Assembly (NCBI GenBank): GCA_016699755.1
Contig: CP065009.1
Coordinates: 298,098 to 362,097, forward strand
Source of the DNA: Candidatus Peregrinibacteria bacterium
Lineage (GTDB): Bacteria > Patescibacteriota > Gracilibacteria > CAIRYL01 > GCA-016699755
DNA length: 64,000 bases
Direction of reading: 5' to 3'
Shown piece after piece: positions 5,690 to 46,050 of this stretch (positions are counted from its first letter, which is position 1; each line of letters opens with the position of its first letter). The position numbers were made by a program, and so were the translations under genes. Below the pieces are notes generated by a model, which saw only the letters and a list, made by a program, of their open reading frames with translations, did not search any database and was not told the DNA's origin.

Positions 5690-5880
5690 CGTTTGACTTT
5701 GGAAATCACCAGAGGAGCTGCGGGAAGAAAATCCATCTCGGATGAGTAGAACCCACCAAAATCGGTTTGTTATTACCGAAAAGAAAGTGTTTCGTATCTC
5801 TACGAAAAACCAGGGTGGTACCGCCCTTTCCCATAAAAAGGGTCCCTGGAAGGCAGAAATTCTGTTTTCCTATTTTTGTG
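5690..5880 (+). promoter_or_regulatory. T-box-like tRNA-sensing leader upstream of ileS
   Basis: 'AACCAGGGTGGTACCGCC' (5808-5825) matches the T-box consensus AGGGUGGUACCGCG. It folds as a classic antiterminator: CCAGGG 5810-5815 pairs with CCCTGG 5844-5849. The bulge is TGGTACCG. The inner helix is CCCTTT 5824-5829 with AAAGGG 5837-5842. A competing hairpin follows (GGAAGGCAG 5848-5856 with CTGTTTTCC 5862-5870), then TATTTTTG. An AGUAG-type motif lies at 5743-5748. TATAAT at 5669-5674. Several AUC triplets are present, so the specifier is not resolved. Confidence 0.6.
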
Positions 5881-5883
5881 TAT

Positions 5884-8800
5884 ATGTCCTCATTCCAGCC
5901 CGTTGATCCAAAAGCATCGTTTCCAAAGCTTGAAGAAGAAATCCTTGCCTTTTGGAAAGAGAACAATTCTTTTCGAAAATCTTTAGAAAATCGGGAAAAT
6001 GCTCCACTCTACACCTTTAACGATGGTCCACCGTTTGCGACCGGTCTGCCACACTATGGGCATATTATTGCGGGAACGATAAAAGATGTTATTCCACGCT
6101 ACCAAACGATGCGAGGGAAATATGTTCCACGTCGTTTCGGGTGGGATTGCCATGGGGTTCCTGTGGAACACGAAATGGAGAAACAGCTGGGCTTTAAAAA
6201 CCGAGATGATATTGAGGAATATGGTGTTCAAAATTTTTGCGAGGCATGCCGAGGAATTGTACTCAAATACACTTCGGAATGGGAAAAATCGGTGGAACGA
6301 ATGGGACGTTGGGTTGATTTTAAAAACGATTATAAAACCATGGACCCTGAGTACATGGAAAAAATTATTGGGGTGTTTGGAAAACTCTGGGATAAAGGAA
6401 TGATTTATGAAGGAAAAAAAGTGGTGGCGTATTCGCCAAAACTTGCTTCGACATTGAGCAACTTTGAGGCGAATTTGAATTACAAAGACATTGATGATCC
6501 GGCGGTAACAGTAAAATTTGAGTTGGAAGAAGAGCCAAATACTTATTTTCTCGCATGGACAACCACTCCATGGACACTTCCAAGCAATTTGGGGCTTTGT
6601 GTTCATCCAGAATTGGAATATGTACGATTTGAAATTCAAAGTGATAACGAGGATTTGCAAAAGAGATTTGGACTAAAAAAAGGTGATCGTTACATAGTAG
6701 CAAAGGGAATTTTTGAAAGAGCACGTGATGAACAAATAGGGTTGCTACGTGATCTTTTTCTTTATCAAGAAACTGGAGAATTTGAAGCATCCTATCGGGA
6801 TCCGCTTGTGATTCAAACGTTAAAGGGCTCCAATCTTATTGGAAAACACTATAAATCGCTTTTTCCATTTCTCAAAGATCTTCACGGAAAAGGCAATCTC
6901 GATTTCTCAAGCGCCTTTCAGGTGTTTGGTGACGATTTTGTCTCCGATGCCGAGGGAACAGGAATCGTTCACCTTGCGCCAACTGGAGAAGACGATGCAC
7001 GTATTCTTACAGCGAACAAGGTTCCGCTTATTTATCCATTCACCGAAACGTGTTATTTTGACGAAACTATTCCACCGCTTGCCGGAAAGTATTTTCGGGT
7101 TGATCCGGTAGTAGAAGGCTCAAAAGAAGATAATGCAAACGATTGGGTTATTGATGCTCTCAAAGAATCTGGAAAATTAATGAAGCGCGAGCAGATTCGG
7201 CACAGCTATCCACACTGTTGGCGAACGGATTGTGCGCTTATGTATCGCGGTATTCACACGTTTTTTGTGGATGTGCAATCCATTAAATCGAAGATGCTCA
7301 AAAATAATGAAGACATTCATTGGGTTCCTGATCATATTCAGCATGGTCGATTTGGAAAAATTCTCGAAAATGCACCCGATTGGGCGATTTCTCGAAGTCG
7401 TTATTGGGGTGCACCAATTCCGGTATGGAAATGTGAATTGTGTCAAAAACGGGAGGTGGCAAATTCTGTTGAAGAAATTGCGAAAAAAGCAAAAAAGAAC
7501 GGAACCCTTTTTGTCGCTCGACATGGTGAGGCAAGCCATAATGTTCGGAGAATTGTTTCTTGTGTTCAAGACGATTCTGTTTCGCTCACCGATGAGGGGA
7601 GAAAACAGGCAGAAAAGCTCGCTGAGAAGATTCAATCTGAAAATATAGAATATATTTTTTGTTCGCCATTACACCGAACACGGCAAACAGCGGAGATCAT
7701 TAAAAAGTATGCCAACATTCCGGTGGAAATTGTGATAGATAACCGTTTGCGAGAAATAGATTTTGGCATAATGGAGGGAAAAACAGCAGAAGAATGGAAG
7801 TCACAGTTTTCCACCGTTTCTGAGAGATATTCCACAAATCCCCATGGCGGAGAGACCTCTGCAGAGGTTGTGGAACGAACTTTTGAGTTTCTTTCGGAAG
7901 TTCGAACAAAATATGTGAACAATAAAGTTCTTATCATTACTCATGGAGAGCTTGTACGGCATTTTCAACAATATTTTTGGAGTGCTTCTGGAGAGCCGCT
8001 CACCCTTAATCCCCCAGAAACAGGAAGTCTTTTTGAGTTTTCTTTTTCTGCTCGTCCAGAAAATTCCAATGGTGAGATTGATCTTCACCGTCCCTATATC
8101 GATAAAATCGTTTTTAACTGTGCATGTGGAGGAGAAATGCATCGCGTTCCAGATGTGCTCGATTGCTGGTTTGAAAGCGGATCAATGCCATACGCGAGTG
8201 TTAGTAGTGAGGAGTATCAGAAGGGGGGCTCATTAAAAATGAAACCTGCTGAGACTCCAGAGGAATTTCATCAGTATCACCAAATTCGGAAAAAAGAGAT
8301 TTTTGATCGATATCATCCAGATATTGTATATGACTTTGATCATCCGGATGAAAAAGATCTCGAGAGTCATCCTTTTGTTCTTATTTTTCAAGAAGAAATT
8401 ATTGGAACCCTTCGCCTCGATGAGCTTGATGGTGAAACAATTGCTCTCCGTGTATTTGCTATTTCCGAAAAATATCAAAATCAAAGATTTGGAAGACAAA
8501 CATTAGATCTTGTGGAGCAATTTGCAAGGGAGAAAGGGTGTTATAGGATTGTTCTTAATGCAAATTGTAATGCCATCTCTTTTTATGAGAGATGTGGATA
8601 TAAAAAAGGATTTTGGGAAGGCGATAGTACTTCTGGGGCAATCCCAATGGGAAAAAATATTTCTTTAAAAAAAGGATTTCCTGCCGATTTTATTGCCGAA
8701 GGTCTCGATCAAACTCGCGGATGGTTTTATACACTTCATGTTCTTGCGAATGCGCTTTACGATTCTCCTGCGTTTCGAAATGTGATTGTGAACGGTATTA

Positions 8801-10140
8801 TTTTGGCGGAAGATGGGCAGAAGATGAGTAAATCGAAAAAGAATTATCCTGATCCTCAGATTATTTTTGATAAATTTGGAGCAGACGCCATGCGGTTTTA
8901 TCTTCTCAGTTCTCCTGCGGTTCGTGCCGAAGATCTTCGCTTTTCTGAAAATGGGGTAGAAGAAGTAGTGCGAAAGGTTCTTTTGCCACTCTGGAACGCC
9001 TATTCCTTTTTTGTGACCTACGCAAATATCGATTCTTGGACACCAGATGAAACCTTCAAAAAAAGTGATCACCTGCTCGATAAATGGGTGCTCTCGGAGC
9101 TTTCTGCCTTTATTCGTGATGTGCAAAATGCTTTTGACGCGTATGAGCTCGATAGTGCCTGCCGAAAAATTCCAGAGTTTCTCGAAAAACTGACAAATTT
9201 TTACATTCGCCGAAGTCGTCGTCGATTCTGGAAATCAGAAACCGATGACGATAAAAATGCTGCATTTCAAACGCTGTTTACCGTTCTTACGGAAACAGTA
9301 AAAGTTATTGCGCCCGCTATGCCATTTATATCGGAAGCAATTTGGCAAAATCTTCGACAGAAAAATAACGTATCTTCGGTGCATCATTCGGATTTTCCAA
9401 ATGCCGATGCATTTCCAGAAGATCGGGAGCTCGTGGAATCTCTCTCTGCAGTGCGTACTATTGTTTCACTGGCGTTGGCACTTCGTGCGCGCGAGAAGCA
9501 AAGAGTTCGTCAACCGCTTGCGCTTCTTAAAGTGGCGCTTCCGTCACGGTTCTCATCTGATATTCTTACGAAATACGAAGATATTCTTCTTGAAGAAGTG
9601 AATGTAAAAAAAGTGGAAGCAGTGCAAAACCCAGAGGAAATAGCGGAAAAATTTGCCAAACCCGATGCGCGAAAAATTGGTCCGAAATACGGAAAGGAGG
9701 TTCAGGAAATTATCCGTGAAGCAAAAAGCGGAAACTTTATCGAGCATGAAGATGGTTCGTGCACGGTTGCTGAAAAATGGGAACTTACTGCGGAAGAAAT
9801 TGAGATTGGCTTTTTGGGAAAAGAGGGGCTTTCTGCTCTTTCCGAAGCAGGAATTGTGGTGGCACTCGATACTATTGTTACACCAGATCTTTTACTGGAG
9901 GGGCACGCACGCGAACTCATTCGTAATATTCAAGAGCTTCGTAAAGAAGCGGAGTATGATATTTCCGACCGTATTTTACTCGGCATCTCTGGCGCAGATG
10001 ATATTCTTGCTCTTTTTGGCGAAATGATCGCTACGGAAACATTAGCGACGGAAATTTTGAAAGAAATTCCCTCTGCTGATATTGAAAAAACGATTTCGCT
10101 TGAAGGGAAAGATATCCATCTTTCATTATTATGGAAGTAG
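5884..10140 (+). CDS. ileS: isoleucyl-tRNA synthetase with inserted histidine-phosphatase and GNAT domains
   Basis: 'PHYGHIIAG' (HIGH), 'TTTPWTLPSN' editing domain, 'KMSKSKKN' (KMSKS), 'LDQTRGWFY'. Insert 1 is about 7504-8088 ('ARHGEASHN...CSPLHRTRQT...ITHGE'). Insert 2 is about 8197-8676 (GNAT: 'ISEKYQNQRFGRQTL...NAISFYERCGYKK'). ATG 5884 chosen ('MSSFQPVDPK'). Confidence 0.95.
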   Translation: MSSFQPVDPKASFPKLEEEILAFWKENNSFRKSLENRENAPLYTFNDGPPFATGLPHYGHIIAGTIKDVIPRYQTMRGKYVPRRFGWDCHGVPVEHEMEKQLGFKNRDDIEEYGVQNFCEACRGIVLKYTSEWEKSVERMGRWVDFKNDYKTMDPEYMEKIIGVFGKLWDKGMIYEGKKVVAYSPKLASTLSNFEANLNYKDIDDPAVTVKFELEEEPNTYFLAWTTTPWTLPSNLGLCVHPELEYVRFEIQSDNEDLQKRFGLKKGDRYIVAKGIFERARDEQIGLLRDLFLYQETGEFEASYRDPLVIQTLKGSNLIGKHYKSLFPFLKDLHGKGNLDFSSAFQVFGDDFVSDAEGTGIVHLAPTGEDDARILTANKVPLIYPFTETCYFDETIPPLAGKYFRVDPVVEGSKEDNANDWVIDALKESGKLMKREQIRHSYPHCWRTDCALMYRGIHTFFVDVQSIKSKMLKNNEDIHWVPDHIQHGRFGKILENAPDWAISRSRYWGAPIPVWKCELCQKREVANSVEEIAKKAKKNGTLFVARHGEASHNVRRIVSCVQDDSVSLTDEGRKQAEKLAEKIQSENIEYIFCSPLHRTRQTAEIIKKYANIPVEIVIDNRLREIDFGIMEGKTAEEWKSQFSTVSERYSTNPHGGETSAEVVERTFEFLSEVRTKYVNNKVLIITHGELVRHFQQYFWSASGEPLTLNPPETGSLFEFSFSARPENSNGEIDLHRPYIDKIVFNCACGGEMHRVPDVLDCWFESGSMPYASVSSEEYQKGGSLKMKPAETPEEFHQYHQIRKKEIFDRYHPDIVYDFDHPDEKDLESHPFVLIFQEEIIGTLRLDELDGETIALRVFAISEKYQNQRFGRQTLDLVEQFAREKGCYRIVLNANCNAISFYERCGYKKGFWEGDSTSGAIPMGKNISLKKGFPADFIAEGLDQTRGWFYTLHVLANALYDSPAFRNVIVNGIILAEDGQKMSKSKKNYPDPQIIFDKFGADAMRFYLLSSPAVRAEDLRFSENGVEEVVRKVLLPLWNAYSFFVTYANIDSWTPDETFKKSDHLLDKWVLSELSAFIRDVQNAFDAYELDSACRKIPEFLEKLTNFYIRRSRRRFWKSETDDDKNAAFQTLFTVLTETVKVIAPAMPFISEAIWQNLRQKNNVSSVHHSDFPNADAFPEDRELVESLSAVRTIVSLALALRAREKQRVRQPLALLKVALPSRFSSDILTKYEDILLEEVNVKKVEAVQNPEEIAEKFAKPDARKIGPKYGKEVQEIIREAKSGNFIEHEDGSCTVAEKWELTAEEIEIGFLGKEGLSALSEAGIVVALDTIVTPDLLLEGHARELIRNIQELRKEAEYDISDRILLGISGADDILALFGEMIATETLATEILKEIPSADIEKTISLEGKDIHLSLLWK

Positions 10141-16004: not shown

Positions 16005-17984
16005 ATGCCGTTTCTGAGTGATAAAAAAAGAAAAGAAACAGAAGAAAAACCAAGACTTGTTTTTTTTAGAGAAAGCAGAGAAAATGTGAAACGATTCTTT
16101 TTTTGGTGCATGGGATTTAAGGTATTTTCAGCACTTCGTCAGGAGGAAAAGGGGGGAGCATTTGTTCGGGTGTTTGAGAAAAAAGTTGGAGATCAACAGC
16201 TTTGGGTTGTTGGTCATTTTCCTGAGTCTAGCCACATGGCGGATGAAGTTCTTCGAGTCATTCGTGATATTGCTGTTTCAAAGATTCTCGATGACCATAT
16301 TGGTGATGAGCAGGACATGTTTGAGTCTGTTCTCAAGGTGGTAAATGAGAAGCTTTCAGAAATGCTTTCAGAAGAAGAGGCGGAGAGTATTTTACGAAAT
16401 GGGAGTATGCTCATTTCCTTTCTCTCTGGAGACCTTCTCCTTCTCTCAAATTACGGTCAAGGGGAGGTATTCCTTCTTCGTGAGAGTGCGCTTCTTGAGG
16501 TTTCTGAGGGGATTTCTCCCGTGATGACTGGAACTGATTTTTTCCAAAATGTAAGTAGTGGTGATCTCCAAAATGGAGATCGTATTGTTATTTCTACTGT
16601 TCGTTTACAGAGATTTGTAACAGAGCGCCATCTTTCTCGAATTCTTTCGGACGGGGGAGTGACAGAGTCGCTTGAGAGTATATCCTCTTGTATTGATCCT
16701 CAGGAAGGATACGGGCTTTTGGTGATGAATATCAAAACGGCTGATCCGCTTCCTTTCCCAGAAGAGCGCTCTATGAATGATCGCACTTCCATTTCCCCAG
16801 GGAGAAGAACGAGCCCCGTTACCCAATTTTCAGAAATTGCCAATCGTTTTTCTGAAGATGTTTTGCAACGTGCAAAGGCACTTCCTTCTTCTCTGCTTTT
16901 GTTGGGAGGTGCTGTTATTTTGGCGCTCCTCCTTCTTTTTCTCTTTTTTTCTCTTCTTTCAAAAGAGCAGGATACACGTCAATCGAGTGAGTTTTCTGAG
17001 TTTGTAAAAAATGTGGAACAAGATTTTTCCAATGTAGACACACGAGTTATTGAAGGAAAAACTGATCAGGCGAATCTTCTTCTTGATGCCATTGAGCAAA
17101 ATGCTCGAAAAATGTTGGAACAACGTGTTGACCTCGCAAATGCGGAAAAAATACTCACACATGTTCAGGAGCAACGAGAAAGTGTGAACCATATTATGCG
17201 GATTACAAATCCAGAGGTATTTTCTGATCTTCGTCCACTAAAATCTGATATTTCTACAAAGGGCATCTCCTTTTTAAAGAACGAATTTTTAGTATACGAC
17301 AAAAATTCTCTTTATCGTATTCTTGCTTCTACTACCCATCCTGAAAATGTTGGTGTGCTAAGCGCTTCTGATAAGGTTCAGTTTTTGACCGCCCTTTCTT
17401 CAAAAGATGAACTTGTTTTTGTTACGGAAAACGGAAGCGTTTTTGAGTGGCAAAATGGTCAAGTGATTTCTGCTGATACGGCAGATAAAACGTGGAAAAC
17501 GGCGAGTGATATTGGTGTTTTTAGTAAGTTTCTCTATTTTTTGAGCCCTTCTGACAATCAGATATGGAAATACGAACGTCGAGAGAGTGGATTTACTATC
17601 CCTGAGGGGTGGATAACCGATGAAACAGTGAATATTTCTGATGCCATTTCCTTTGCTATTGACGGAAGTGTTTTTGTTCTCCTGAAGGATGGAACAATTC
17701 AGAAATACCATCGAGGAGAGTCGCAACCATACGAAGTAAAGGGAACTCCCGGAGGAGCGCTTTTGGGAAGCAAAATCTTTACGAATGACACACTTGCGTC
17801 GCTGTTTGTTCTCGATCCTAAGGAGAAACGAATATTTATTTATGAGAAATACGAAAATGAGGCAGTATACAAGAAACAAATCGTCATTGAGAATACTGAA
17901 CCGATTGTCGATTTTTATGTTGTCGGGAATACAATTTATCTTCTTGGACAACAACAAATATATAGTGTCACCATTCCTGAGTAG
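16005..17984 (+). CDS. membrane protein with degenerate PP2C-like N-domain and large extracytoplasmic C-domain
   Basis: 'MLISFLSGDLLLLSNYGQGEVFLLRE' and 'LQNGDRIVISTVRLQRFV' mimic PP2C blocks, but the metal-binding GDSR reads GQGE. One TM ('LLLLGGAVILALLLLFLFFSLL'), then a beta-rich C-terminus. Confidence 0.45.
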   Translation: MPFLSDKKRKETEEKPRLVFFRESRENVKRFFFWCMGFKVFSALRQEEKGGAFVRVFEKKVGDQQLWVVGHFPESSHMADEVLRVIRDIAVSKILDDHIGDEQDMFESVLKVVNEKLSEMLSEEEAESILRNGSMLISFLSGDLLLLSNYGQGEVFLLRESALLEVSEGISPVMTGTDFFQNVSSGDLQNGDRIVISTVRLQRFVTERHLSRILSDGGVTESLESISSCIDPQEGYGLLVMNIKTADPLPFPEERSMNDRTSISPGRRTSPVTQFSEIANRFSEDVLQRAKALPSSLLLLGGAVILALLLLFLFFSLLSKEQDTRQSSEFSEFVKNVEQDFSNVDTRVIEGKTDQANLLLDAIEQNARKMLEQRVDLANAEKILTHVQEQRESVNHIMRITNPEVFSDLRPLKSDISTKGISFLKNEFLVYDKNSLYRILASTTHPENVGVLSASDKVQFLTALSSKDELVFVTENGSVFEWQNGQVISADTADKTWKTASDIGVFSKFLYFLSPSDNQIWKYERRESGFTIPEGWITDETVNISDAISFAIDGSVFVLLKDGTIQKYHRGESQPYEVKGTPGGALLGSKIFTNDTLASLFVLDPKEKRIFIYEKYENEAVYKKQIVIENTEPIVDFYVVGNTIYLLGQQQIYSVTIPE

Positions 17985-19467: not shown

Positions 19468-20913
19468 CTAAAAGTTCACTAAAAAGAGAACGACAAGACC
19501 TATGGTCACGAGTGATCCAAAAGAGTATCCCAATATTTTCCCATGTGAAAGCCGTACGTGAATAGTAAGTCCGGCAAAAATAAGGAACACAGATCCTGTG
19601 ATCATAAAAGGAAATGAGCTTGTAACCGATCGCCATAAAAAATCATAGAACGAAGATTCATTTCCCCATTTCACAAGGGCAAAAACAGTTATATAAAAAA
19701 AAGAAACATAGAAAGCAAGAAGCCATCCAAAAAAGAGACGAAGTTCTCGAAAAAACCGATATGAAAGATTTATGTGGTAGTCGCGTTGTTCCTCTTTTTT
19801 TTTATTTTCCTCCTCTTTCATTGTTTCCTCCTGTTCCGCATTCATTTTTTCTCCTTTCGCAATGAGTTTTGCTCTTGAGGCACTAACAACATCTGAGAGC
19901 TCTTGAAATGTCTCGACGAGACTATGAAGATGTTCTTTTCGGGCGGCATTACTCTTTGTAAAAATAATGCGCCGTATCGTTCGAAAAATTTTTCGAGTTG
20001 AATGAATGATGAGTTTTGTCCGAATGGCGGCAGGGTTTGTTTGAAGAAACCCTTGTGGTTTTTCCTCTCTGTGCTTTTGTTTTTTCCCGAGTGCTTTTGC
20101 GAGGCGTTCGGAGAGTTTTCCGAGACGCGATGTTGTTCCCGCATTTTTTGATCTGAGGTAATAGTCTTCAACATTTACTTCTTGTTTTTCACGCTCCTCT
20201 TTTTCTCCTCTTATGCCACCCTCTTCACTCACCTCTGTGCCCCCATGCTCCTGCTGAGCCTTATCAATAAGATCGAGGAGTTCATCTGCAAGATCTTGAA
20301 TATATTTTAGGTTATTACTGAGGCGAAGACGCATAAGATTATCTACGCGGATTTTGATTTCGTGGTACTCGTTTCCCGTCATCTGATCCTGATAGCCCTT
20401 CATTACCTCCTCTGCCCTTTTGGCGATTTTTTCTACACTTTTAATAAGTTCTTTTTTTGTTTGTAAAAAATATTCATTCTTCTTCTCGTCCGATCCTGCC
20501 AAATCATTTTCCGGTTCTTTTGGGGCAATACCATATTTCTCAAAAACCTCATCAGAAAGTTCTTTAAGCCCCTCCTTTCCTTTTTCTTCTCGAAGTTGTT
20601 CTGGAACACTTGTTTCACAAAGCGATATGACCCGAAAGCCATATTCTGAGATAAGGCGAATGTATGCGGTTTCACGAGATTTTGCATTAATGGTTCCTGC
20701 AGTTTCTTTCCCTTTAACATCGACAACATGAAAGTAGAACGACATTGATCCTGTTTCTTCTTCTGCAATTTCTTCGTTTGTTTTCTCAATAAAAACTACA
20801 GAAAGCCCCATAGCATGAAGTTTTGCTCGTGCTTCTTTTTCGTCTTTTGCCGCTAAAACTCCTGTAAGTTTTCGGTTTTCTTGGTTGAGGGTGATATACT
20901 TAAACTTTTCCAT
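19468..20913 (-). CDS. hypothetical membrane protein with two GspF/PilC-N-terminal-like repeats
   Basis: 'FKYITLNQENRKLTGVLAAKDEKEARAKLHAMGLSVVFIE' and 'FYFHVVDVKGKETAGTINAKSRETAYIRLISEYGFRVISL' resemble the repeated cytoplasmic module of T2SS/T4P platform proteins. Charged middle, C-terminal TM bundle. Confidence 0.45.
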   Translation of the reverse strand: MEKFKYITLNQENRKLTGVLAAKDEKEARAKLHAMGLSVVFIEKTNEEIAEEETGSMSFYFHVVDVKGKETAGTINAKSRETAYIRLISEYGFRVISLCETSVPEQLREEKGKEGLKELSDEVFEKYGIAPKEPENDLAGSDEKKNEYFLQTKKELIKSVEKIAKRAEEVMKGYQDQMTGNEYHEIKIRVDNLMRLRLSNNLKYIQDLADELLDLIDKAQQEHGGTEVSEEGGIRGEKEEREKQEVNVEDYYLRSKNAGTTSRLGKLSERLAKALGKKQKHREEKPQGFLQTNPAAIRTKLIIHSTRKIFRTIRRIIFTKSNAARKEHLHSLVETFQELSDVVSASRAKLIAKGEKMNAEQEETMKEEENKKKEEQRDYHINLSYRFFRELRLFFGWLLAFYVSFFYITVFALVKWGNESSFYDFLWRSVTSSFPFMITGSVFLIFAGLTIHVRLSHGKILGYSFGSLVTIGLVVLFLVNF

Positions 20914-24470: not shown

Positions 24471-26321
24471 GTGAAAAAAGAATTTGAGCAGTCTTGTGGA
24501 TACCATATCCAATGTGTTTCGTGCGGTAAACGGTGGAAAGAAGAAGAGACCATTACGAACTGTCTTGATTGCGGAAACGCACTTGAAGTTGTGATGAATC
24601 TTGAAAAAATAGCACTCCAAGTCAATCGTTTTGCGCTGACGCATACACCGCTTTCTGCGGCAAAATATCTCGATTTTTATCCCATTTGTGATCGTTCAAA
24701 AGTGGTAACTCTTTCAGAAGGAAATACACCGCTTTACCGTGCGGAACGCTTAGGAAAATCTCTTGGGTTTTCCCAACTTTTTATTAAAGACGAAGGAGCA
24801 AATCCAACCGGAGTTTTTAAAGACCGTGGAAGTTTAGTAGAAATTACAAAAGCGCTTGAAATGGGGGCAACAGCAATATGTGTTGCGAGCACAGGGAATA
24901 TGGCGGCATCGGTTTCTGCGTATGCAAGTCGTGCAGGATTACCTTGTTACGTCCTTGTTCCTGAGGGAACTCCTATTGGGAAACTCGCGCAAACGCTGAG
25001 TTATGGAGGGAAGCTTATTCAGATTCGGGGAACATACGCCGATTGTGTGCGACTTTCGGATGAGCTCTCTCGAAAAAATAATTTTTATCTTGCAGGAGAC
25101 TATGCATTTCGTGCGGAGGGTGCCAAATCCACCGCATTTGAAATTCTCGAACAGCTCCACTGGAAAGTACCAGATGCTGTTTTGGTTCCCGTGGGATGTG
25201 GAACAAATCTCGCCGGCATTGCAAAAGGATTTCGAGAGTTTTTTGAATTGGGATACGTGAACACAATTCCGCGAATGATTGCCGTTCAGCCGGAGGGGTG
25301 TAATACGGTATGTGAAGCATTTCACTCTGGTGCCGATCGCTTTACTCCAGTGGATAAGCCAAAAACAGTAGCGAGTGCGGTTGGAATTGGATTTCCGCTT
25401 GATGATATAAAGTGTCTCTGTGCGCTCAAACAATCTGGTGGAACCGCAGAAACTGCTTCTGATGAAGATATTCTATTGGCACAATATCAACTTTCGAAAC
25501 AGGAATCTGTTTTTACAGAACCTTCTGGGGCAATTCCGATAGCGGTTTTGCCAAAGCTCCTCGAAAAAGGATTGCTCAAAGCAGACGAAATAGTAGTTTG
25601 TATCGCTACTGGAACAGGACTCAAAGATCCAAAAGCCGCTATTCAGTCTTTTGCAGAGCCTTCTACTATAAGTGCTCAAATTGAAGATATTGAACGCTTT
25701 CTTCAAAGTGGAGCATCAGACATGCGCCCTTCCCGACAATCACAAAAGGAAGAAGAAGTGTTTCAGGCTCTTCCCTCTGGAATGGAGCTTCGAATATTTT
25801 TAGAAAAAGAATTTTCCCATTCCCCTGACGATATTGTTCTTGAAAATGTTCTCCAAGAAATTGATTCTTTTTTTCGTCGAGGGAAAACGATTACGAAAGC
25901 GGATCTTTTAAATATGTTAGAAGAAGCTATTGAAAATACAAATATTCCTGAATTTCCTTTGAGTATTACTGATTTTTCTGTCGAAGATTCTTTTCAAAAA
26001 TCTCCATTTGCTCAGGTATTACTCGATTTTTCAGGAGATTCCTGTTCAGGGCAATCAATAGGAGTTGGACCAGTGGATGCTCTTATTAAAGCAATGAAAA
26101 ACGCACTTTCTTCTGTAAGTGATTTTTGGCCGGAGCTTGCCGACTTTCATGTGGAAATAATAACGAGCAAAGAAAGCGCTATTGCAAAGGTTTTTATGGC
26201 AATGCAGGATGGAGAGGGGAATCAAGTACACGCAAAAGCAAGTAGCCCCGATGTTATTGTTGCGGCACTCCACGCATTTATAAAAGGATTTAACCTCCTT
26301 TTTGATCATCGGAAAAAATAG
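24471..26321 (+). CDS. thrC: threonine synthase-like PLP enzyme fused to a LeuA-type allosteric (LeuA_dimer-like) C-terminal domain
   Basis: N-terminal Cys4 ribbon ('CVSCG...CLDCG'), PLP-lysine block 'GVFKDRGS', 'STGNMAAS'. C-terminal about 120 aa (about 25947-26318) 'GVGPVDALIKAM...LADFHVEII...AIAKVFM...SPDVIVAALHAFIKGFN' matches the LeuA regulatory-domain pattern. GTG start. Confidence 0.75.
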   Translation: MKKEFEQSCGYHIQCVSCGKRWKEEETITNCLDCGNALEVVMNLEKIALQVNRFALTHTPLSAAKYLDFYPICDRSKVVTLSEGNTPLYRAERLGKSLGFSQLFIKDEGANPTGVFKDRGSLVEITKALEMGATAICVASTGNMAASVSAYASRAGLPCYVLVPEGTPIGKLAQTLSYGGKLIQIRGTYADCVRLSDELSRKNNFYLAGDYAFRAEGAKSTAFEILEQLHWKVPDAVLVPVGCGTNLAGIAKGFREFFELGYVNTIPRMIAVQPEGCNTVCEAFHSGADRFTPVDKPKTVASAVGIGFPLDDIKCLCALKQSGGTAETASDEDILLAQYQLSKQESVFTEPSGAIPIAVLPKLLEKGLLKADEIVVCIATGTGLKDPKAAIQSFAEPSTISAQIEDIERFLQSGASDMRPSRQSQKEEEVFQALPSGMELRIFLEKEFSHSPDDIVLENVLQEIDSFFRRGKTITKADLLNMLEEAIENTNIPEFPLSITDFSVEDSFQKSPFAQVLLDFSGDSCSGQSIGVGPVDALIKAMKNALSSVSDFWPELADFHVEIITSKESAIAKVFMAMQDGEGNQVHAKASSPDVIVAALHAFIKGFNLLFDHRKK

Positions 26322-30517: not shown

Positions 30518-30703
30518 TAAAAATAGGGATAATATACTCCCAACGTATACTTGCGATTTGGAAAAAACAGTTGTTTTTTTTGGCATCTTTTTCTTCAAAA
30601 AATTGATGTGGAGTTTTTCTTATAAAAAAGACGAATTCTCAAAAAATGTTCTTGAAAAAATCTTTAATAAGTGATATTATTTCATGATATAAAAACAAAT
30701 CAA

Positions 30704-31927
30704 ATGCCACTCCTCATGCTTGGTTGGGAATTTCCACCGCTTCATTCTGGAGGACTCGGGGTTGCCACCCGGAATATCGCCCTCTCTCTTTCACGTCGCG
30801 GTGTTCCCGTATGCTTTGCTCTTCCTCATTTTGTTCATTCTCAATGGAGAAAAAAGGGAGGAATAGAGCACGAGTTTGAGGTCGCTTCTCAAAATATGAA
30901 TATTGAGATTGCGCGTATTTCTTCTTCCATTGTTACTCCGTATGCCACAGTAGAAGGATATTCTGAATGGGTTCGAGAAATGGGACCCACAGAATCGATG
31001 CTCTACGGAAAAAATCTCTTTGCAGAAATTGATCGCTTTTCAGAAGAAGTCGCAAGGATGGCAGAGAAACGCTCGTTTAATCTTGTCCATGCGCATGACT
31101 GGATCACTTTTCCTAGTGCAATACGGGTGAAAGAAAAACAGGGAACTCCGTTTGTGGCGCATGTTCATGCTACAGAACTCGATCGAACAGGATGGAATCC
31201 AAATGAAGAAATTTATCGTCGAGAGCGTGCTGGCATGGAGCGAGCTGATCGCATTCTTGCAGTGAGTCGCCACACAAAAAATGTCATTCAAAAAGACTAT
31301 GGCATTCCCGAGCATAAAATTGGTGTGGTTCATAACGGTGCCGAATCGGTACATCATCGTCTTGAGTATGTTTCTCCTCGGTTTCGTCACCAAAAAACCA
31401 TTCTCTTTCTTGGGCGTCTAACAGTACAAAAGGGTCCCGATTGGCTCATAAAAATTGCAAAAAAAGTGCTCGAAAAAGATCAAAATGTACAATTTCTCAT
31501 TGCCGGAACGGGGCACATGCTTCCACAGCTTCTTCACGAAATTACAACTTCTGGACTTTCTCAGCACGTTATTCCACTAGGGTTTCTCAATGATTCTGAA
31601 CGAGAAAAAGCATTTAAAAATACCGATCTCTACATTATGCCGTCGGTTTCTGAGCCCTTTGGGCTTTCGGCAATTGAGGCGGCTCAACGCGGAATTCCTG
31701 TTATTATGAGTAAGCAATCTGGAGCAAAAGAAGTACTTTCGAACTCTCTTCTTGCAGATTTTTGGGATGTAGACAAAATGGCGCACCTTGTTCTTGCGGC
31801 GCTCCATTATCATCCGCTTCACCAAACTCTTTCAGAAAAAGCGCATGGAGAAATCAAACACTTGACGTGGGACAGGCAAGCAGAGAAAATTTGTCATGAA
31901 TACAAAGCGCTGACTTCCGCGTTCTGA
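30704..31927 (+). CDS. glycosyltransferase, glycogen/alpha-glucan synthase-like (GT4/GT5 fold)
   Basis: 'LMLGWEFPPLHSGGLGVA' N-terminus, 'HAHDW', 'PSVSEPFGLSAIEAAQRGIPVI' EX7E-type block. Confidence 0.7.
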   Translation: MPLLMLGWEFPPLHSGGLGVATRNIALSLSRRGVPVCFALPHFVHSQWRKKGGIEHEFEVASQNMNIEIARISSSIVTPYATVEGYSEWVREMGPTESMLYGKNLFAEIDRFSEEVARMAEKRSFNLVHAHDWITFPSAIRVKEKQGTPFVAHVHATELDRTGWNPNEEIYRRERAGMERADRILAVSRHTKNVIQKDYGIPEHKIGVVHNGAESVHHRLEYVSPRFRHQKTILFLGRLTVQKGPDWLIKIAKKVLEKDQNVQFLIAGTGHMLPQLLHEITTSGLSQHVIPLGFLNDSEREKAFKNTDLYIMPSVSEPFGLSAIEAAQRGIPVIMSKQSGAKEVLSNSLLADFWDVDKMAHLVLAALHYHPLHQTLSEKAHGEIKHLTWDRQAEKICHEYKALTSAF

Positions 31928-31955
31928 TTTCTTCTTTCCCTTCTCCCTTTCTCCC

Positions 31956-33266
31956 ATGTCAAAAGAGACTCCGCACAAGGCGGTCTGCCTCTATTTTCAG
32001 GTCCACCAACCCTTTCGTTTGCGAGAGGTTTCATTTTTCGAAGATCATCCGCAGGATATTTTCCGTGGACCAGATGAATATAAAAACGAGGATATTTTTA
32101 ACAAGGTTGCCGATAAGTGCTATCTTCCGGCGACAAAACTTTTTCTCCATCTCGCAGAAACACGTCCTGAATTTCGTGTCTCTTTTTCACTCTCGGGGGT
32201 ATTTCTTGAGCAGTGCGACCTTTTTCCCGCAAAAGGAAAAGAGATTTTACGCCTCTTTCAACAGCTCGCGAAAACGGGGAAATGTGAATTTCTTTCGGAA
32301 ACTTACGCCCATTCTCTTTCTTTTCTCTACTCCAAAGAGGAGTACGCAGAACAAATTCTTCTCCACCGAAAGGCAGTGGAAGAGCGTTTTGGCGTAAAAC
32401 CAACTGTTTTCCGAAATACAGAACTTATCTATCGCAATGATATTGGCGAATTTATCCGACAAATGGGATTTTCGGGAATGATTGTTGAAGGTTGGGATCA
32501 CTACCTGCATGGCTCTAATCCACACGATGTTCGTGTAGCAACGCCTATGGAAATCCACAAGGAAGACGAAAGAATCGCTCAGAAGTACGCTATTTCCAAA
32601 AAATTACAGAAAACACTTCCACTTCTTTTGAAGAGCTATCAGTTTTCTGATGATGTTGCGTTCCGTTTTGGAAATAAGACATGGGAAGAGTGGCCACTCA
32701 CCACCGGAAAATATGCCGGTTGGCTTGATGCGGTATATGGCGAAACCATTAATCTCTTTATGGATTACGAAACCATTGGGGAGCACCAGTGGGAAGACAC
32801 GGGAATTTTCTCGTTTTTTGAGCATCTTCCGCATGAACTTGCGGCACGTGGTATCGGATTTCGAACACCATCCGAAACGATAGCGCAGTGTGATCATCGT
32901 GCGGAGTACAATGTTCCACACTTTCTTTCGTGGGCAGATACAGAACGAGATCTCTCTGCATGGGTTGAGAATGGCATTCAGCATTCTGCACTCGAGGAAC
33001 TTGGACGACTTGAACAGCTTGTTCATGATCTGAAGACCTCAAAAAAACCAGAAGTTTTAGAACTTCTCGACGCTTTTCGAAAAATCCAAACCTCCGATCA
33101 TCTCTACTATATGTGTACGAAATATTGGAGTGATGGTGATGTTCACAAGTACTTTTCTCCCTACGAATCACCGTATGAGGCATACATCACCTTTATGAAT
33201 GCTATGCGTTCGCTTCATTCTCGTGCGAAACATCTTCGAGAGGCAGAAGGTTTTTCTCCGCTCTAA
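31956..33266 (+). CDS. glycoside hydrolase family 57 (alpha-amylase/branching-type)
   Basis: 'LYFQVHQPFRLR' N-terminal signature and 'LFMDYETIGEH' catalytic-region pattern of GH57. Confidence 0.75.
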   Translation: MSKETPHKAVCLYFQVHQPFRLREVSFFEDHPQDIFRGPDEYKNEDIFNKVADKCYLPATKLFLHLAETRPEFRVSFSLSGVFLEQCDLFPAKGKEILRLFQQLAKTGKCEFLSETYAHSLSFLYSKEEYAEQILLHRKAVEERFGVKPTVFRNTELIYRNDIGEFIRQMGFSGMIVEGWDHYLHGSNPHDVRVATPMEIHKEDERIAQKYAISKKLQKTLPLLLKSYQFSDDVAFRFGNKTWEEWPLTTGKYAGWLDAVYGETINLFMDYETIGEHQWEDTGIFSFFEHLPHELAARGIGFRTPSETIAQCDHRAEYNVPHFLSWADTERDLSAWVENGIQHSALEELGRLEQLVHDLKTSKKPEVLELLDAFRKIQTSDHLYYMCTKYWSDGDVHKYFSPYESPYEAYITFMNAMRSLHSRAKHLREAEGFSPL

Positions 33267-33278
33267 TATCCACCTCTT

Positions 33279-35315
33279 ATGCCACGATCTCTTGTTCTTG
33301 GAAACGGAAATGTTCTCGTTACCTTTGACAATCATCTTCAGCTTCGAGACATGTACTATCCTTTTGTTGGACAAGAAGATCATACTGGATACGACAATGT
33401 TCACAGAGTTGGATTTTGGGTAAATGGTCAATTTCTCTGGCTTGATGATCCTTCGTGGCGTATTACTATCGATTATGAAGAAGGAACTTTGGTTGGAAAT
33501 GGATATGCAGAAAATTATCGTCTTGGAATTGCTGTTACCTTTCACGATTTTGTTTCGCTGACGGAAGACATTTTTTTTCGGTCGCTCGAAATTACGAATC
33601 TTTCGGGAGAAGAAAAAGAGGTGCGTGTTTTTTTTCATCACGATTTTCATATTTATGGAGAAAAGAGCAAAGACACAGCACTGTATGAGCCAGATTTAAA
33701 CTCCATTTTGCATTATCGGGGTCGGCGATATTTTCTTGTTGGCGGACAATGGGGGAGTGGTGAACAATCAAATCAGTATACTATGGGAGAAAAGGCGCTC
33801 CTTTTTGGTCACGAAGGAGAGGGAATGGGAATGGATGAATATACGGTAGGGAAGAGTAAATATCACGAAAAAGAGGGAACATTTCGCGATGCGGAAGACG
33901 GCACACTTCAGAAGAATCCTATCGATCAGGGGTCGGTCGATTCTACAGTTCGATTTTCGATACACATTTCTCCTGGAAAAACGAAACAGCTTTTTCTGTG
34001 GATTGCTTTTGGAAAAACCTACCAATCGGTTCTTAAGAAAAATGAGCATATTCGTGAGGTTGGTGCTGAGCGCATTCGGAACCATGTTCGCGGGTATTGG
34101 CGCGAATGGCTTGCGACGTTTTCTGGAGATATCTCTTCTCTTCCGAGTTCTGTTCAGCATCTCTTTCAAAAAAGTCTCCTTATTCTTCGGACACAAATTG
34201 ATAATCGAGGAGCCATTTTAGCGGCGAATGATTCTGATGTTATGGCGACAAATCGTGATAATTACAGCTATATGTGGCCACGCGATGCGTCACTTTGCGC
34301 TATGACACTTGCAAAAGTTGGCTTTGAAGAGCCGTGTCGGAATTTTTTTCAGTTTTGTGAAGAGATTATCACTCCCGAAGGATATTTTCTCCACAAGTAC
34401 AATCCCGATGGTTCCCTTGGTTCTTCGTGGCATCCAAAAATAGTAAACGGTGAAAAAAGACTCCCAATTCAAGAAGACGAGTCTGCTCTTGTACTTGTGG
34501 CACTTGATCAGTATTTTTCCTCTTTTCATTCGCTTGAAGTAATTCAGCGATTTTTTCCAACGCTCATTCTCCCCCTTGGAAATTGGCTACAGAGTTATGT
34601 TGATCCCAGTTTTTCTCTTCCGCTTCCATCATACGATTTATGGGAACAGAGTTGGGCAACATCAAGTTATACCGCTTCGTGTGTGTACGCTGGGCTTCTC
34701 GCCGCCGCGCGTCTTTCGGAAGCGACAGGGCATCAGCAGAGTGCAGATTCTTTTCGGGAATCGGCGACGTGTTTACAAACATCTATAGCGAATCACCTTT
34801 TTTCTTCTGAACAGAATCGTTTTCTTCGAAGTATCGAAATTCGAGATGGCGTTATTACCAAAAAAGATGATGGCATCGATTCCTCACTTGTGTTTCTTTG
34901 GAAAATGGGGGTTTTTGCGCCGGATGATCCGCGGATTCAAAGCACAATGAAGGTGATACACGAAACGCTTACCATTCCGGGAAACATTGGTGGACTTGCA
35001 CGATTCGCACGCGATCCGTATCAGTTCGATCACCAGCTTTCTTATGAACGATACACAGGAAATCCTTGGATTATTACTACTCTTTGGGAAGCGGAATATC
35101 GTATTAAAATGGCAAAAACAAAAGACGATCTTGCCGAAGCAGAAAAAACGCTTTTGTGGGCAACCGAGCGAGCGAGTAGCGCAGGAATGCTTCCCGAGCA
35201 AGTGCATCCCGAAACTGGAGAACACCTCTTTGTTTCTCCGCTCACATGGAGTCATGCTACTTTTATTGATACCGTGCTGGCATTTGCAGAGAAGGCAAAA
35301 AAACTGAAGAAATAG
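33279..35315 (+). CDS. glycoside hydrolase family 15 (glucoamylase/glucodextranase-like)
   Basis: 'YSYMWPRDAS', 'LPEQVHP', 'PLTWSHATFI' blocks typical of the GH15 (alpha/alpha)6 domain. N-terminal beta-sandwich. Confidence 0.85.
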   Translation: MPRSLVLGNGNVLVTFDNHLQLRDMYYPFVGQEDHTGYDNVHRVGFWVNGQFLWLDDPSWRITIDYEEGTLVGNGYAENYRLGIAVTFHDFVSLTEDIFFRSLEITNLSGEEKEVRVFFHHDFHIYGEKSKDTALYEPDLNSILHYRGRRYFLVGGQWGSGEQSNQYTMGEKALLFGHEGEGMGMDEYTVGKSKYHEKEGTFRDAEDGTLQKNPIDQGSVDSTVRFSIHISPGKTKQLFLWIAFGKTYQSVLKKNEHIREVGAERIRNHVRGYWREWLATFSGDISSLPSSVQHLFQKSLLILRTQIDNRGAILAANDSDVMATNRDNYSYMWPRDASLCAMTLAKVGFEEPCRNFFQFCEEIITPEGYFLHKYNPDGSLGSSWHPKIVNGEKRLPIQEDESALVLVALDQYFSSFHSLEVIQRFFPTLILPLGNWLQSYVDPSFSLPLPSYDLWEQSWATSSYTASCVYAGLLAAARLSEATGHQQSADSFRESATCLQTSIANHLFSSEQNRFLRSIEIRDGVITKKDDGIDSSLVFLWKMGVFAPDDPRIQSTMKVIHETLTIPGNIGGLARFARDPYQFDHQLSYERYTGNPWIITTLWEAEYRIKMAKTKDDLAEAEKTLLWATERASSAGMLPEQVHPETGEHLFVSPLTWSHATFIDTVLAFAEKAKKLKK

Positions 35316-43753: not shown

Positions 43754-44658
43754 AGATGCGCCACGATGTTCCGCTCTCTCAGTTTTCTACCTTTCGTATT
43801 GGTGGTCCGGCGGACTTTTTGATATTTGCAGAGACGAAAGATCATGTAGAGGAAGCCCTTCAATTTGCTGAAGAGAAGCATCTTCCTGTGTTTTTTTTGG
43901 GTGGAGGAAGCAACGTGCTTTTTTCTGATTTTGGTTTTCGTGGACTCGTTATTTGTCTTAAAAATCGAAATGTAATCGAAGAATCGCCTGGGATTTTTTG
44001 TGTTGAAGCAGGAGTACCAAATGTTCTTTTTTACGCTTATGCAAAAGAGCGACACCGCGATTTTTCCCCATTTTTTACCATTCCCGGAACCATTGGTGGT
44101 GCCATTGCTGGAAATGCAGGAGTGCCTCAAGGGGAAATAAAAGACGTTCTTCTTTCTGCGGAGGTATTTCACATTTCCCAAAAGAAATGGGAAGAAGTGT
44201 CCACTTCCTTCTTTCGTTTTTCGTATCGTCATTCCTGTTTTCATGAAGATCCTGCTCTTTGTAAAGAAATCCTTATTTGGTCAGCTCGGGTTTCGCTTCC
44301 GGAAAAATTGCCAAATGAAATAGAACAGACAGCACATGCTTTTCTTCAGAAGCGAAAAGAAACTCAACCATGGGGAATGACTGGTGGTAGTTTTTTTCGA
44401 AATCCTTCAGAAGGAGCTGCCGGTTTTTTCTTGGAACAATCGGGAATGAAGGGGCAGCAAGTTGGAGATGCATTTTTTTCTGAAAAACACGCTAATTTTC
44501 TTATGAATGCGGGAAGAGCAACACAACGAGATATTATTGATCTCGCCAAAATGGGAATATCTGCGGTTTGGAAAAGCTTTTCTATATTGCTCTCTCCTGA
44601 GGTTCGTATTCTCGATGAATTTGGAAACGAAGTTCCTCTTTCGCTAGAACATTTATAG
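43750..44658 (+). CDS. murB: UDP-N-acetylenolpyruvoylglucosamine reductase (copy 2)
   Basis: 'FRIGGPADFLI', 'PVFFLGGGSNVLF', 'PGTIGGAIAGNAG', 'GGSFFRNP', 'EVRILDEFG'. ATGA overlap with copy 1. Confidence 0.85.
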   Translation: MKMRHDVPLSQFSTFRIGGPADFLIFAETKDHVEEALQFAEEKHLPVFFLGGGSNVLFSDFGFRGLVICLKNRNVIEESPGIFCVEAGVPNVLFYAYAKERHRDFSPFFTIPGTIGGAIAGNAGVPQGEIKDVLLSAEVFHISQKKWEEVSTSFFRFSYRHSCFHEDPALCKEILIWSARVSLPEKLPNEIEQTAHAFLQKRKETQPWGMTGGSFFRNPSEGAAGFFLEQSGMKGQQVGDAFFSEKHANFLMNAGRATQRDIIDLAKMGISAVWKSFSILLSPEVRILDEFGNEVPLSLEHL

Positions 44659-46050
44659 AAAGTAGGATCGGAATTTTGTTTGATTCAAATAAAGAGCCCA
44701 TTTTTTGGTTGCCTGTTTTTTTCGAGAGAAGGAAAAAGAAACGCTATCTCCATTGCGAACCGAACTCGCGAGTTCTTCCAGCCGACCATTGAGCCGTACT
44801 TCCTTTATAAAAGCGGATCTTTTTTTGTAGAGAAGACATGCCACATCAAGAAGTGTGGCAGGAGCATCAATCGTATGCGGAGTATTTTCTTTGTCGAAAA
44901 TAATAATATGCCTTTCTCGAATAGCAGATTTGAGTAATTGTTCAAAGTGTTCTGGTGATTTTACCTCTGCTCGAAGATGGAGAAGTCCTCGTTCAAGGTT
45001 TCCCAGCATCTTCCCTTTTGTGAGCGCGTATTTTGCATTTTTATAGCGAGCATGAGAAGCGAGACCAAATTCATCTTGAGAATGCATACGATGTGTTCGA
45101 ATTTGCACTTCAATGCGTTGTGGGTTTTCTCCTGGAAATGGAGAAACGAGAGTGTGAAGCGATTGGTATCCATTTTCCTTTGGAGCGGCAATGTAGTCTC
45201 GAAACCCCTCAAATGAAGGCGGAAAAAGTCGGTGCACAATACCGAGAATGTGGTAACAGTCCTTTTCATTTTCTGTGATGATACGAATAGCAATTCGATC
45301 TGGAATTTCACGAAAGGATTGGTGGTGAAGGAGGAGTTTTTTATAGGTGGAATAGATTCCTTTCATTCTCTTGTGAATCTGGGCGGGAATGTTTTCTCTT
45401 TGCATCTTTTCTCGGAGAATTGTTTCTGTTTTTTCGAGAAGCGCATTGTCAAAACGAGAAGAAGCACTGAATGATTTCAGAACTTTTTGGAAATAACGAG
45501 GATGAAGCACAGAAAAAGAGATATCTTCCAATTCTCGCCGCCAAGCAGAAATACCAAGACTTCCTGCAATGACTCCATAAAGAAAGAGTGTTTCTCGAGA
45601 GATTGTTTTTTGAAGTCTCAAAAGAAAACGTGTTATGTGGCGAATATCGTTAACGCGGTGAGCGAGGCGGAGAAGGGCAATGTCGGCATTTTCAAGAAAT
45701 GATTGAATGGCAAATTCAAGATCGTCCGTATTTTCATCAACATGAAGTCGGCGGAGTTGATGCATGCTTCTGATGATATTCCGCTCTGATTCAGAAAAAA
45801 AAGATTTTCGTAAAATCTCTTCTCCACGAGGATGAAGATGGATATCGTGGCATAAGGCACATGCGATGAGTGAAGGGTTTTTTGTTCGTTCAAAGGTGAC
45901 ACACGCAACTTCCTCTCCGTGTTTTGCGTAGCTTTCTCCAGTTCGTCGCATAATTGTTGAAAGGTGTGTATTTGCTAATTCATGGGCGGCACGTATGACA
46001 TATTTCTGTCCTGAAGAATCAAAGAATGACAAGATCTCTGCGAAGGTCAC
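44653..46050 (-). CDS. RelA/SpoT homologue, (p)ppGpp synthetase/hydrolase
   Basis: HD domain ('HGEEVA...ALCHDI'), synthetase block 'YQSLHTLV...IEVQIRTHRMH', C-terminal TGS-like 'IFDKENTPHTIDAPATLLDVA'. GTG start. Confidence 0.85.
   Translation of the reverse strand: MTFAEILSFFDSSGQKYVIRAAHELANTHLSTIMRRTGESYAKHGEEVACVTFERTKNPSLIACALCHDIHLHPRGEEILRKSFFSESERNIIRSMHQLRRLHVDENTDDLEFAIQSFLENADIALLRLAHRVNDIRHITRFLLRLQKTISRETLFLYGVIAGSLGISAWRRELEDISFSVLHPRYFQKVLKSFSASSRFDNALLEKTETILREKMQRENIPAQIHKRMKGIYSTYKKLLLHHQSFREIPDRIAIRIITENEKDCYHILGIVHRLFPPSFEGFRDYIAAPKENGYQSLHTLVSPFPGENPQRIEVQIRTHRMHSQDEFGLASHARYKNAKYALTKGKMLGNLERGLLHLRAEVKSPEHFEQLLKSAIRERHIIIFDKENTPHTIDAPATLLDVACLLYKKRSAFIKEVRLNGRLEELASSVRNGDSVSFSFSRKKQATKKWALYLNQTKFRSYFL

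Follow-up and report, generated by a model that had tools for sequence, protein, structure and literature searches.

What are two further enzymes doing inside an isoleucyl-tRNA synthetase (IleRS)? The question is posed by ileS, a gene in a stretch of 64,000 nucleotides from Candidatus Peregrinibacteria bacterium (contig CP065009.1, positions 298,098 to 362,097 of the forward strand; the whole stretch is called the window throughout, and positions are counted from its first letter). A first-pass annotation, made from the letters alone, had claimed that the reading frame of this gene runs through two complete inserted domains, a histidine phosphatase (HP) and a GNAT acetyltransferase, and had speculated that these might act on the aminoacyl-adenylate or the charged tRNA. 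Here we establish that the nested architecture is real, trace the two inserts through related proteins and weigh what they may be for, leaning slightly towards passenger enzymes that are carried by the synthetase and take no part in its reaction.

One uninterrupted open reading frame (ORF) spans positions 5767-10140 of the forward strand in the ORF listing of the window and, from the ATG at 5884, encodes 1418 residues; the frame is thus as continuous through both inserts as had been claimed, and the product matches NCBI QQS59519.1 in every residue, a record that comes from a Candidatus Peregrinibacteria contig of 1.56 Mb. The whole protein scores 872.5 bits against the ileS equivalog TIGR00392 (cutoff 621.4; NCBIfam), and Pfam resolves it into tRNA-synt_1 in three stretches, His_Phos_1, Acetyltransf_1, Anticodon_1 and DUF5915. 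Both nested enzyme domains are complete, in frame and in the loops where they had been placed, with Pfam matches far above the cutoffs for His_Phos_1 (PF00300; residues 542-705, E 1.6e-38, 132.8 bits against 21.7) and Acetyltransf_1 (PF00583; residues 806-906, E 3.8e-16, 59.9 bits against 20.7). Insert boundaries were set by global alignment with three insert-free relatives of ~1020 residues each (P0083, P0098, P0099), which assigns 198 residues to insert 1 and 157 to insert 2; the refined limits, 7486-8079 and 8197-8667, lie within ~20 nt of those first proposed (7504-8088 and 8197-8676). At the two positions the insert-free relatives have ~7 and ~11 residues in the same alignment and human IleRS has ~6 and ~9, in keeping with the statement that a normal IleRS has only short linkers there. 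The motifs quoted in the first-pass annotation are all present in the window protein.

Could the three domains nevertheless be separate genes, joined by an error of assembly or gene calling? Some database members of related clusters are indeed split into IleRS, PhoE and GNAT fragments. Against this, the frame is unbroken in the window, more than 100 relatives from many sources have the nested architecture, and the IleRS core is complete only when its flanks are joined across the inserts. Moreover, an independent Logan assembly (P0310; 94% identical) carries the same sequence through both inserts and all four junctions, which speaks against a chimeric assembly and answers the concern over misassembly that had been raised at the outset. 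We therefore dropped this explanation, to which we give next to no chance: the nested architecture is confirmed as real, far beyond chance and without misassembly. An intein was likewise considered and dropped, as the Pfam scan of the whole protein contains no Hint or intein family; the insert junctions also lack the Cys/Ser start and His-Asn end of splice junctions.

Around its inserts the synthetase appears to be whole. All four Zn-knuckle cysteines are kept, and most residues of the core motifs (HYGH, KMSKS, the editing site and the Zn ligands) fall in invariant alignment columns. The best solved relatives in a PDB sequence search are human IARS1, P. megaterium IleRS2, yeast IleRS and T. 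thermophilus IleRS. An AlphaFold2 (AF2) model of residues 1-1200, built from a 48-sequence alignment, reaches a mean predicted local distance difference test score (pLDDT) of 88.3 and a predicted template-modelling score (pTM) of 0.80, with both inserts folded with confidence and uncertainty confined to short linkers (residues 701-710 and 775-782); on T. thermophilus IleRS (1ILE) it gives a target-normalised template-modelling (TM) score of 0.90 (Foldseek). With the type-2 enzymes—Priestia megaterium IleRS2 (8C8U/8C8V), T. thermophilus IleRS (1ILE) and the yeast and human cytosolic proteins—the window protein has the entire core in common, that is, the HUP/Rossmann fold with HYGH and KMSKS, CP1, the Zn knuckle, the anticodon-binding domain and the type-2 C-terminal domain (PDB sequence E 1e-203 to 1e-218; Foldseek target TM 0.70-0.90), whereas the 198 and 157 residues of the two window inserts are matched in these enzymes by linkers of ~6-11. 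The profiles for the mupirocin-resistant MupA and MupB forms of IleRS fail their cutoffs (678 and 692 bits against 1900). Motifs and predicted fold together show the gene to encode what should be a complete type-2 (eukaryote-like) IleRS. Insert 1 follows the editing domain and parts the two halves of the Zn knuckle, CxxC from CxC, and insert 2 leaves the second Rossmann half between WFESGSMPYA and FPADFIAEGLDQTRGWF; both loop out from the surface and, as modelled, fold as separate domains.

Insert 1 is the HP domain, a PhoE-like member of branch 1 of His_Phos_1, and is modelled with a pLDDT of 90-97 over residues 541-700, up to the low-confidence linker that follows. The first-pass annotation had named degenerate catalytic residues, on proper alignment, as grounds for rejecting its claim. 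Those of HP are intact: R546, H547, N553, R598, E624 and H687 are all in place, and their positions are conserved at 97-100% across 132 IleRS-embedded HP copies, which shows HP to retain what by its residues is the full phospho-histidine catalytic apparatus. The nearest solved structures are PhoE (1EBB/1H2E; E 1.5e-17) and then the metal-independent phosphoserine phosphatase (iPSP) 4IJ5. PhoE of Geobacillus stearothermophilus, iPSP and CobC share the His_Phos_1 fold and the catalytic residues of HP, with the difference that they are free-standing and the window HP is nested in the Zn-knuckle loop; a word-indexed homologue search with the HP insert likewise returned only free-standing phosphatases, at 30-40% identity. 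HP falls below the cutoff of every NCBIfam equivalog tried, namely dPGM_arch (89.7 against 225), pgm_1 (38.9 against 81.7), CobC (94.2 against 162.9), SixA (37 against 74.5) and PspA (86.7 against 350). The domain is acidic, with an isoelectric point (pI) of 5.9 and a median of ~6 across HP copies, and the GC content at its third codon positions (GC3; 0.32) is in line with that of the core (0.345).

How far does this domain reach beyond the window? The 120 best IleRS homologues were aligned and local hidden Markov models (HMMs) were built from the window inserts, the homologue and genome samples being ranked by similarity to the insert-bearing query and so favouring proteins that share the inserts. 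HP occurs in 110 of the 120 homologues and in 32 of the 38 loci labelled as Candidate Phyla Radiation (CPR), both of which are overestimates. Insertions concentrate at five hot spots: site A, the Zn knuckle; site B, where the window has its GNAT; site C, at the start of the anticodon-binding helical domain (residue ~1055); site D (residue ~219); and site E, in CP1. Site A carries HP in 74 proteins and site C or B does so in others, and one whole clade has it at site C only; when site A is without HP, site C or B usually has it. Two proteins (P0023, P0084) bear HP at A, B and C together and four (P0035, P0110, P0116, P0102) have two or three tandem copies at site A, and in these multi-HP proteins every copy has intact catalytic residues. 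HP copies cluster strictly by insertion site, with 22-35% identity between sites even within one protein, and HP distance follows host-core distance (r = 0.75 at site A, r = 0.86 at site C). Site-wise clustering, low identity between sites and co-divergence with the host point to old, separately fixed and vertically inherited insertions, and judged by these sequence comparisons they show HP to be an old IleRS-embedded family, inherited vertically across CPR lineages in three alternative loops.

A distribution scan of GTDB species genomes with generic IleRS motifs found site-A HP in the IleRS of Saccharibacteria, Paceibacterota, Taylorbacteria, Minisyncoccia, Peregrinibacteria/Gracilibacteria and other metagenome-assembled genomes of Patescibacteria. 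The same scan did not find it in the type-2 IleRS of Victivallales, Lentisphaerae, Chlamydiae, Myxococcota, Fibrobacteria or archaea, nor in a few CPR genomes, and IleRS proteins free of inserts are also present among the close relatives. Near insert-free ileS, the sole His_Phos_1 gene within 10 kb (in locus L090) encodes a conventional dPGM that shares 28% identity with the embedded HPs, and the AAA_18 kinases that adjoin insert-free ileS do not match the inserted kinases described below. As far as these sequences tell, HP-in-IleRS is widespread in the CPR lineage and is not unique to the window.

Insert 2 has a different history. Modelled in isolation with AF2, the domain has GNAT topology (pLDDT 90.4) and Foldseek probabilities of 1.00 to many GNATs; its nearest structures, by Foldseek and PDB sequence search, are SACOL1063, PaiA, HP0935 and YjcF. 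In the acetyl-CoA loop, canonically Q/R-x-x-G-x-G/A, the window reads Q-N-Q-R-F-G: Arg stands at the first Gly position, and the second Gly and the Tyr of FYE are kept. In most related GNATs the loop is the canonical QxxGxG and the invariant Tyr is present. The domain is acidic (pI 5.3, net charge -7), and at 0.23 its GC3 falls below the 0.345 of the core. With the small GNATs SACOL1063 (5JPH), YjcF (1Q2Y) and Hpa2Ab, which are its best neighbours in sequence and structure, its identity is ~23%, and the window GNAT differs from them in its QNQRFG loop and in being fused inside another enzyme. Free amino acids are the acetylation substrates of SACOL1063 and its homologue Hpa2Ab, both of which fold as compact monomers (PMC10267138).

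The GNAT is patchily distributed, being missing from four proteins among the closest relatives (P0004, P0005, P0008 and P0009; 55-64% identity), and it varies in place between sites B, C and D: two subgroups occur at B in sister sequences, and one relative has it at C and one at D. A word-indexed homologue search with the GNAT profile gave a single match, and the relatives came from an exhaustive search, by profile, through 1.84 billion representatives, in which 15 clusters at E<=1e-30 include IleRS proteins, free-standing GNATs of 149-154 residues and UvrC proteins. The free-standing P0162 (152 residues) is 52% identical to the window GNAT, aligned over its residues 8-150. In one UvrC protein (P0163; locus L085, 8001-10313), recovered on five contigs from ENA, Logan and JGI, the GNAT is nested in the RNase H-like domain and is 46% identical to that of the window; a second UvrC (P0161) has two nested copies of the subfamily, at 41% identity. 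These proteins repeat the arrangement of the window IleRS, with the same GNAT subfamily in frame inside a large housekeeping protein, in a different host protein and pathway, which argues against an IleRS-specific role. These comparisons show that an entire gene for a small acetyltransferase has been fused in frame into ileS.

By what route might such genes enter a synthetase? The same loops in relatives hold other domains: DUF559 nuclease-like domains, P-loop kinases of the AAA_33, AAA_18 and Zeta-like kinds, an IS200-like Y1 transposase domain and a MuF_C-like domain. In one relative (P0003; locus L088, 1501-6762) the DUF559 and P-loop-kinase inserts are each flanked on both sides by perfect GC-rich hairpins, the left being CCCCCCTGACAAGGGGGG, with an identical left arm, and the right CTCCCCCTTATCAGGGGGAG or CCCCCTTATCAAGGGGG; they lie at nt 791, 1259, 3521 and 4080 of the 5.2-kb gene, which has no more than these four. 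Read in frame they give SPLTRGG, PPYQGEG and PLIKGEK, peptides that also flank other DUF559 inserts and one site-D GNAT, so that the hairpin-bounded unit looks like a cassette that may insert in frame. Flanking peptides of this type are not found around the HP copies, no GC-rich hairpins of this kind occur in the 64-kb window, and neither window insert is flanked by direct or inverted repeats beyond chance; the window thus bears no mobile-element signature, and its inserts look old and domesticated, to judge from their flanks. Inteins and homing-endonuclease insertions also enter essential proteins in frame, at sites that are permissive or conserved, and the loops in question hold nuclease-like and Y1-transposase domains in relatives; unlike inteins, the window inserts are without a Hint domain or splice residues and would remain in the mature protein as folded enzymes. 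A preference of domain insertions for aminoacyl-tRNA synthetases (aaRSs) as hosts is documented (PMC13114784).

Two smaller observations concern the same gene. Nearly all differences between the window protein and the independently assembled P0310 lie in one patch of the CP1 periphery (window positions 6604-6870; IleRS residues ~241-330), where this edge of the editing domain is essentially non-homologous in the two proteins and the remainder is ~99-100% identical; this suggests what may be a local, cassette-like replacement at hot spot E. An exact 12-nt repeat, AAAAAAGGATTT, encoding KKGF, occurs near the GNAT end (8602-8613) and again where the IleRS core resumes (8668-8679), probably by chance in A-rich sequence.

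We put a probability of about 0.55 on the reading that both inserts are autonomous small-molecule enzymes carried by IleRS as a permissive host, and not participants in aminoacylation. HP would be a phosphomonoesterase acting via phospho-His547, and the GNAT an acetyl-CoA-dependent N-acetyltransferase for amino-acid-like amines; both would be co-translated with the synthetase as passengers, with no part in aminoacylation, editing or modification of isoleucyl-adenylate (Ile-AMP) or Ile-tRNA. The loops of IleRS would tolerate cassettes, the GC-rich hairpins around the cassettes of relatives at the same hot spots suggest how in-frame insertions might arise, and the benefit would lie in assured expression and retention in a streamlined genome. 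The reading draws on the varying site of HP, which indicates that HP needs no set geometry with respect to the active site, on the patchy GNAT that is also free-standing and present in UvrC, on the acidity of both inserts and on the unrelated domains found in the same loops; the fallback offered by the first-pass annotation, moonlighting fusions in a reduced genome, fits this evidence better than the tRNA-acetylating role that it had put first. Some points weigh against passengers. One enzyme family, HP, became fixed in a single host protein at three sites, sometimes in two or three copies and always with intact residues for catalysis, which hints at a specific partnership between HP and IleRS rather than random hitch-hiking; the prevalence figures are inflated because the rankings favour insert-bearing proteins; and the Arg at the first Gly position of its acetyl-CoA loop makes the activity of the window GNAT less certain.

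The partnership is the most substantial of the other explanations. HP would then be functionally coupled to IleRS, as a lineage-specific accessory catalytic domain acting on something that the synthetase binds or makes, with turnover of adenosine monophosphate (AMP) or pyrophosphate (PPi), a tRNA 3' end that carries phosphate or pyrophosphate, phospho-IleRS or some phosphorylated ligand as candidate targets. Fixation at three loops, tandem and multi-site copies with catalytic residues always intact, the usual presence of HP at C or B where A has none, its occurrence at site A in several CPR lineages and absence from non-CPR type-2 IleRS, and its co-divergence with the host would all be accounted for. 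Its position is nevertheless not conserved, lying in the CP region in some lineages and in the anticodon-binding domain in others; an acidic domain is unlike a tRNA-binding module; the phosphatase is generic, PhoE-like and below all equivalog cutoffs; and insert-free IleRS occurs among close relatives in samples biased to HP-bearing proteins. On balance we regard coupling as unlikely, if worth serious consideration. A version that asks for more, in which HP is a true CPR-specific accessory domain repeatedly recruited for an IleRS-associated phosphorylated substrate (candidates being a blocked tRNA 3' end, phospho-IleRS, a nucleotide product or an inhibitor) and the GNAT and kinase cassettes are add-ons to this hub, strikes us as doubtful.

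For the GNAT, two precedents exist in other systems. Some GNATs acetylate aminoacyl-tRNA, and the target of ItaT is Ile-tRNA; on this general precedent, its sole support, the insert might acetylate Ile-tRNA(Ile) or Ile-AMP in the manner of TacT, AtaT and ItaT, as the first-pass annotation had speculated. The fold and the use of acetyl-CoA are indeed shared with those toxins, but none of TacT, AtaT, ItaT or KacT appears among the 17 PDB sequence matches at E<=0.01 or the top 50 Foldseek neighbours, where SACOL1063, YjcF and PaiA stand nearest. The window GNAT is moreover acidic rather than basic, patchy, placed at B, C or D in different IleRS proteins and shared with UvrC and free-standing proteins; nested inside ileS, an essential gene, it has no adjacent small antitoxin ORF in evidence, and blocking the product of the host enzyme would be self-toxic. 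The speculation found no support and seems to us very improbable. Acetylation of processed microcin C by MccE/RimL is a precedent for self-protection, in which the GNAT (with the kinases of relatives and possibly HP) would inactivate inhibitors of IleRS such as aminoacyl-adenylate mimics at their target. It is true that an acetyltransferase, a P-loop kinase (with a weak chloramphenicol-phosphotransferase-like match) and a phosphatase, all classic drug-modifying families, meet in the same loops, that patchiness suits an arms-race trait and that the closest characterised GNATs acetylate free amino acids. A GNAT that also occurs in UvrC and alone is not target-specific, however, and the insert has no Pfam match to Acetyltransf_3 (PF13302, the RimL/MccE type) at E<=0.01, no MccE or RimL among its top 50 Foldseek neighbours, no PADLOC defence model (0 families for either insert) and no inhibitor-biosynthesis or immunity context near ileS; we consider self-protection improbable. 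Equally improbable, in our estimate, is that the inserts are catalytically dead modules, structural or allosteric, that sense metabolites and adjust IleRS accordingly. Allostery often arises through domain insertion, and the deviating QNQRFG loop of the window GNAT would suit such a module; the conservation of HP catalytic residues at 97-100% in 132 diverged copies, the canonical loop and invariant Tyr of most related GNATs and the variable insertion sites, which speak against a tuned allosteric interface, all count the other way. The passenger reading thus keeps our preference for both domains.

Table 1. The window ileS gene, its nested domains and its motifs (all coordinates are positions in the window).
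Feature	Position	Strand	Residues	Content and basis
ileS coding sequence	5884..10140	+	1418 aa plus stop	Single frame; TIGR00392 above cutoff
N-terminal IleRS body	5884..7485	+		First Rossmann half, CP1 editing domain, first Zn-knuckle half; AF2 pLDDT mostly >85
HYGH motif	6052..6063	+	57-60	
Editing-site motif TTTPWT	6559..6576	+	226-231	
Zn-knuckle cysteines, CELC	7432..7443	+	517-520	
Insert 1, HP domain (His_Phos_1 branch 1, PhoE-like)	7486..8079	+	535-732	Pfam, alignment, AF2
HP catalytic set	7519..7944	+	546-687	R546-H547 (RHGE, nt 7519-7530), N553, R598 (nt 7675-7677), E624 (nt 7753-7755), H687 (nt 7942-7944)
IleRS core between inserts	8080..8196	+		DLHRPYID, second Zn-knuckle half, WFESGSMPYA
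Zn-knuckle cysteines, CAC	8119..8127	+	746-748	
Insert 2, GNAT domain (SACOL1063/YjcF-like)	8197..8667	+	772-928	Pfam, alignment, AF2
Acetyl-CoA loop and invariant Tyr	8476..8586	+		QNQRFG (nt 8476-8493), Tyr901 of FYE (nt 8584-8586); GNAT alignment
IleRS core resumes	8668..9078	+		FPADFIAEGLDQTRGWF (nt 8677-8727), KMSKS (nt 8821-8835), stem-contact region
KMSKS motif	8821..8835	+	980-984	
Anticodon_1 and type-2 C-terminal domain DUF5915	9079..10137	+	1066-1211 and 1232-1413	Pfam

Elsewhere in the window, a protein of 616 residues (24471-26318, forward strand) joins a pyridoxal-phosphate-dependent PALP domain to a C-terminal LeuA allosteric (LeuA_dimer) domain, an unusual fusion and possibly a threonine dehydratase-like enzyme that has borrowed its regulatory domain. 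Genes for a GT4/GT5 glycosyltransferase, a GH57 protein and a GH15 (glucoamylase-like) protein stand in a row as a glycogen/starch-type cluster (30671-35315, forward strand). On the reverse strand a short RelA/SpoT homologue (HD_4 and RelA_SpoT, 464 residues; 44653-46047) adjoins an HtrA-like protease (46050-47342). Two large ORFs of 659 and 480 residues (16005-17984, forward, and 19468-20913, reverse) have no Pfam match at E<=1e-5.

How much of this was known? Nested domains in aaRSs are familiar, CP1 and the INS insertion of IleRS2 being examples. A recent (2026) preprint on IleRS domain evolution deals only with the CPs, ED, ARD1-3, ZBD and INS, and with no phosphatase or acetyltransferase. 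A curated precedent exists for a GNAT-bearing IleRS, the NCBIfam family NF040702 (ileS_w_GNAT, 'isoleucine--tRNA ligase, N-acetyltransferase domain-containing'). Against this profile the window protein scores 302.8 bits (cutoff 1999), no better than its match to type-1 IleRS; the family belongs to a different IleRS lineage, and its 1100 positions are too few for HP plus GNAT. The first-pass annotation had counted it against its own claim should the architecture prove common and already annotated in this lineage. Common it is, and automated annotations do list the domains, as in the JGI name 'isoleucyl-tRNA synthetase/phosphohistidine phosphatase SixA/...GNAT', but a published description of HP or of this GNAT inside IleRS was not found in the literature searched. 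GenBank calls the window IleRS (QQS59519.1) a 'GNAT family N-acetyltransferase', and the labels on its relatives read 'class I tRNA ligase family protein' or 'hypothetical protein'. Such insert-driven misnaming means that automated reconstructions can miss IleRS in CPR genomes and miscount their phosphatases and acetyltransferases.

An essential translation enzyme in which the active sites of a phosphatase and an acetyltransferase appear to be intact is unusual for bacteria. With HP in three alternative loops and one to three copies across many CPR lineages, a GNAT shared with UvrC and hairpin-bounded cassettes at the hot spots of relatives, IleRS offers a natural system for studying how domains become nested in essential proteins. 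If HP is indeed coupled to its host, it would add a new enzymatic activity to the accessory domains embedded in aaRSs.

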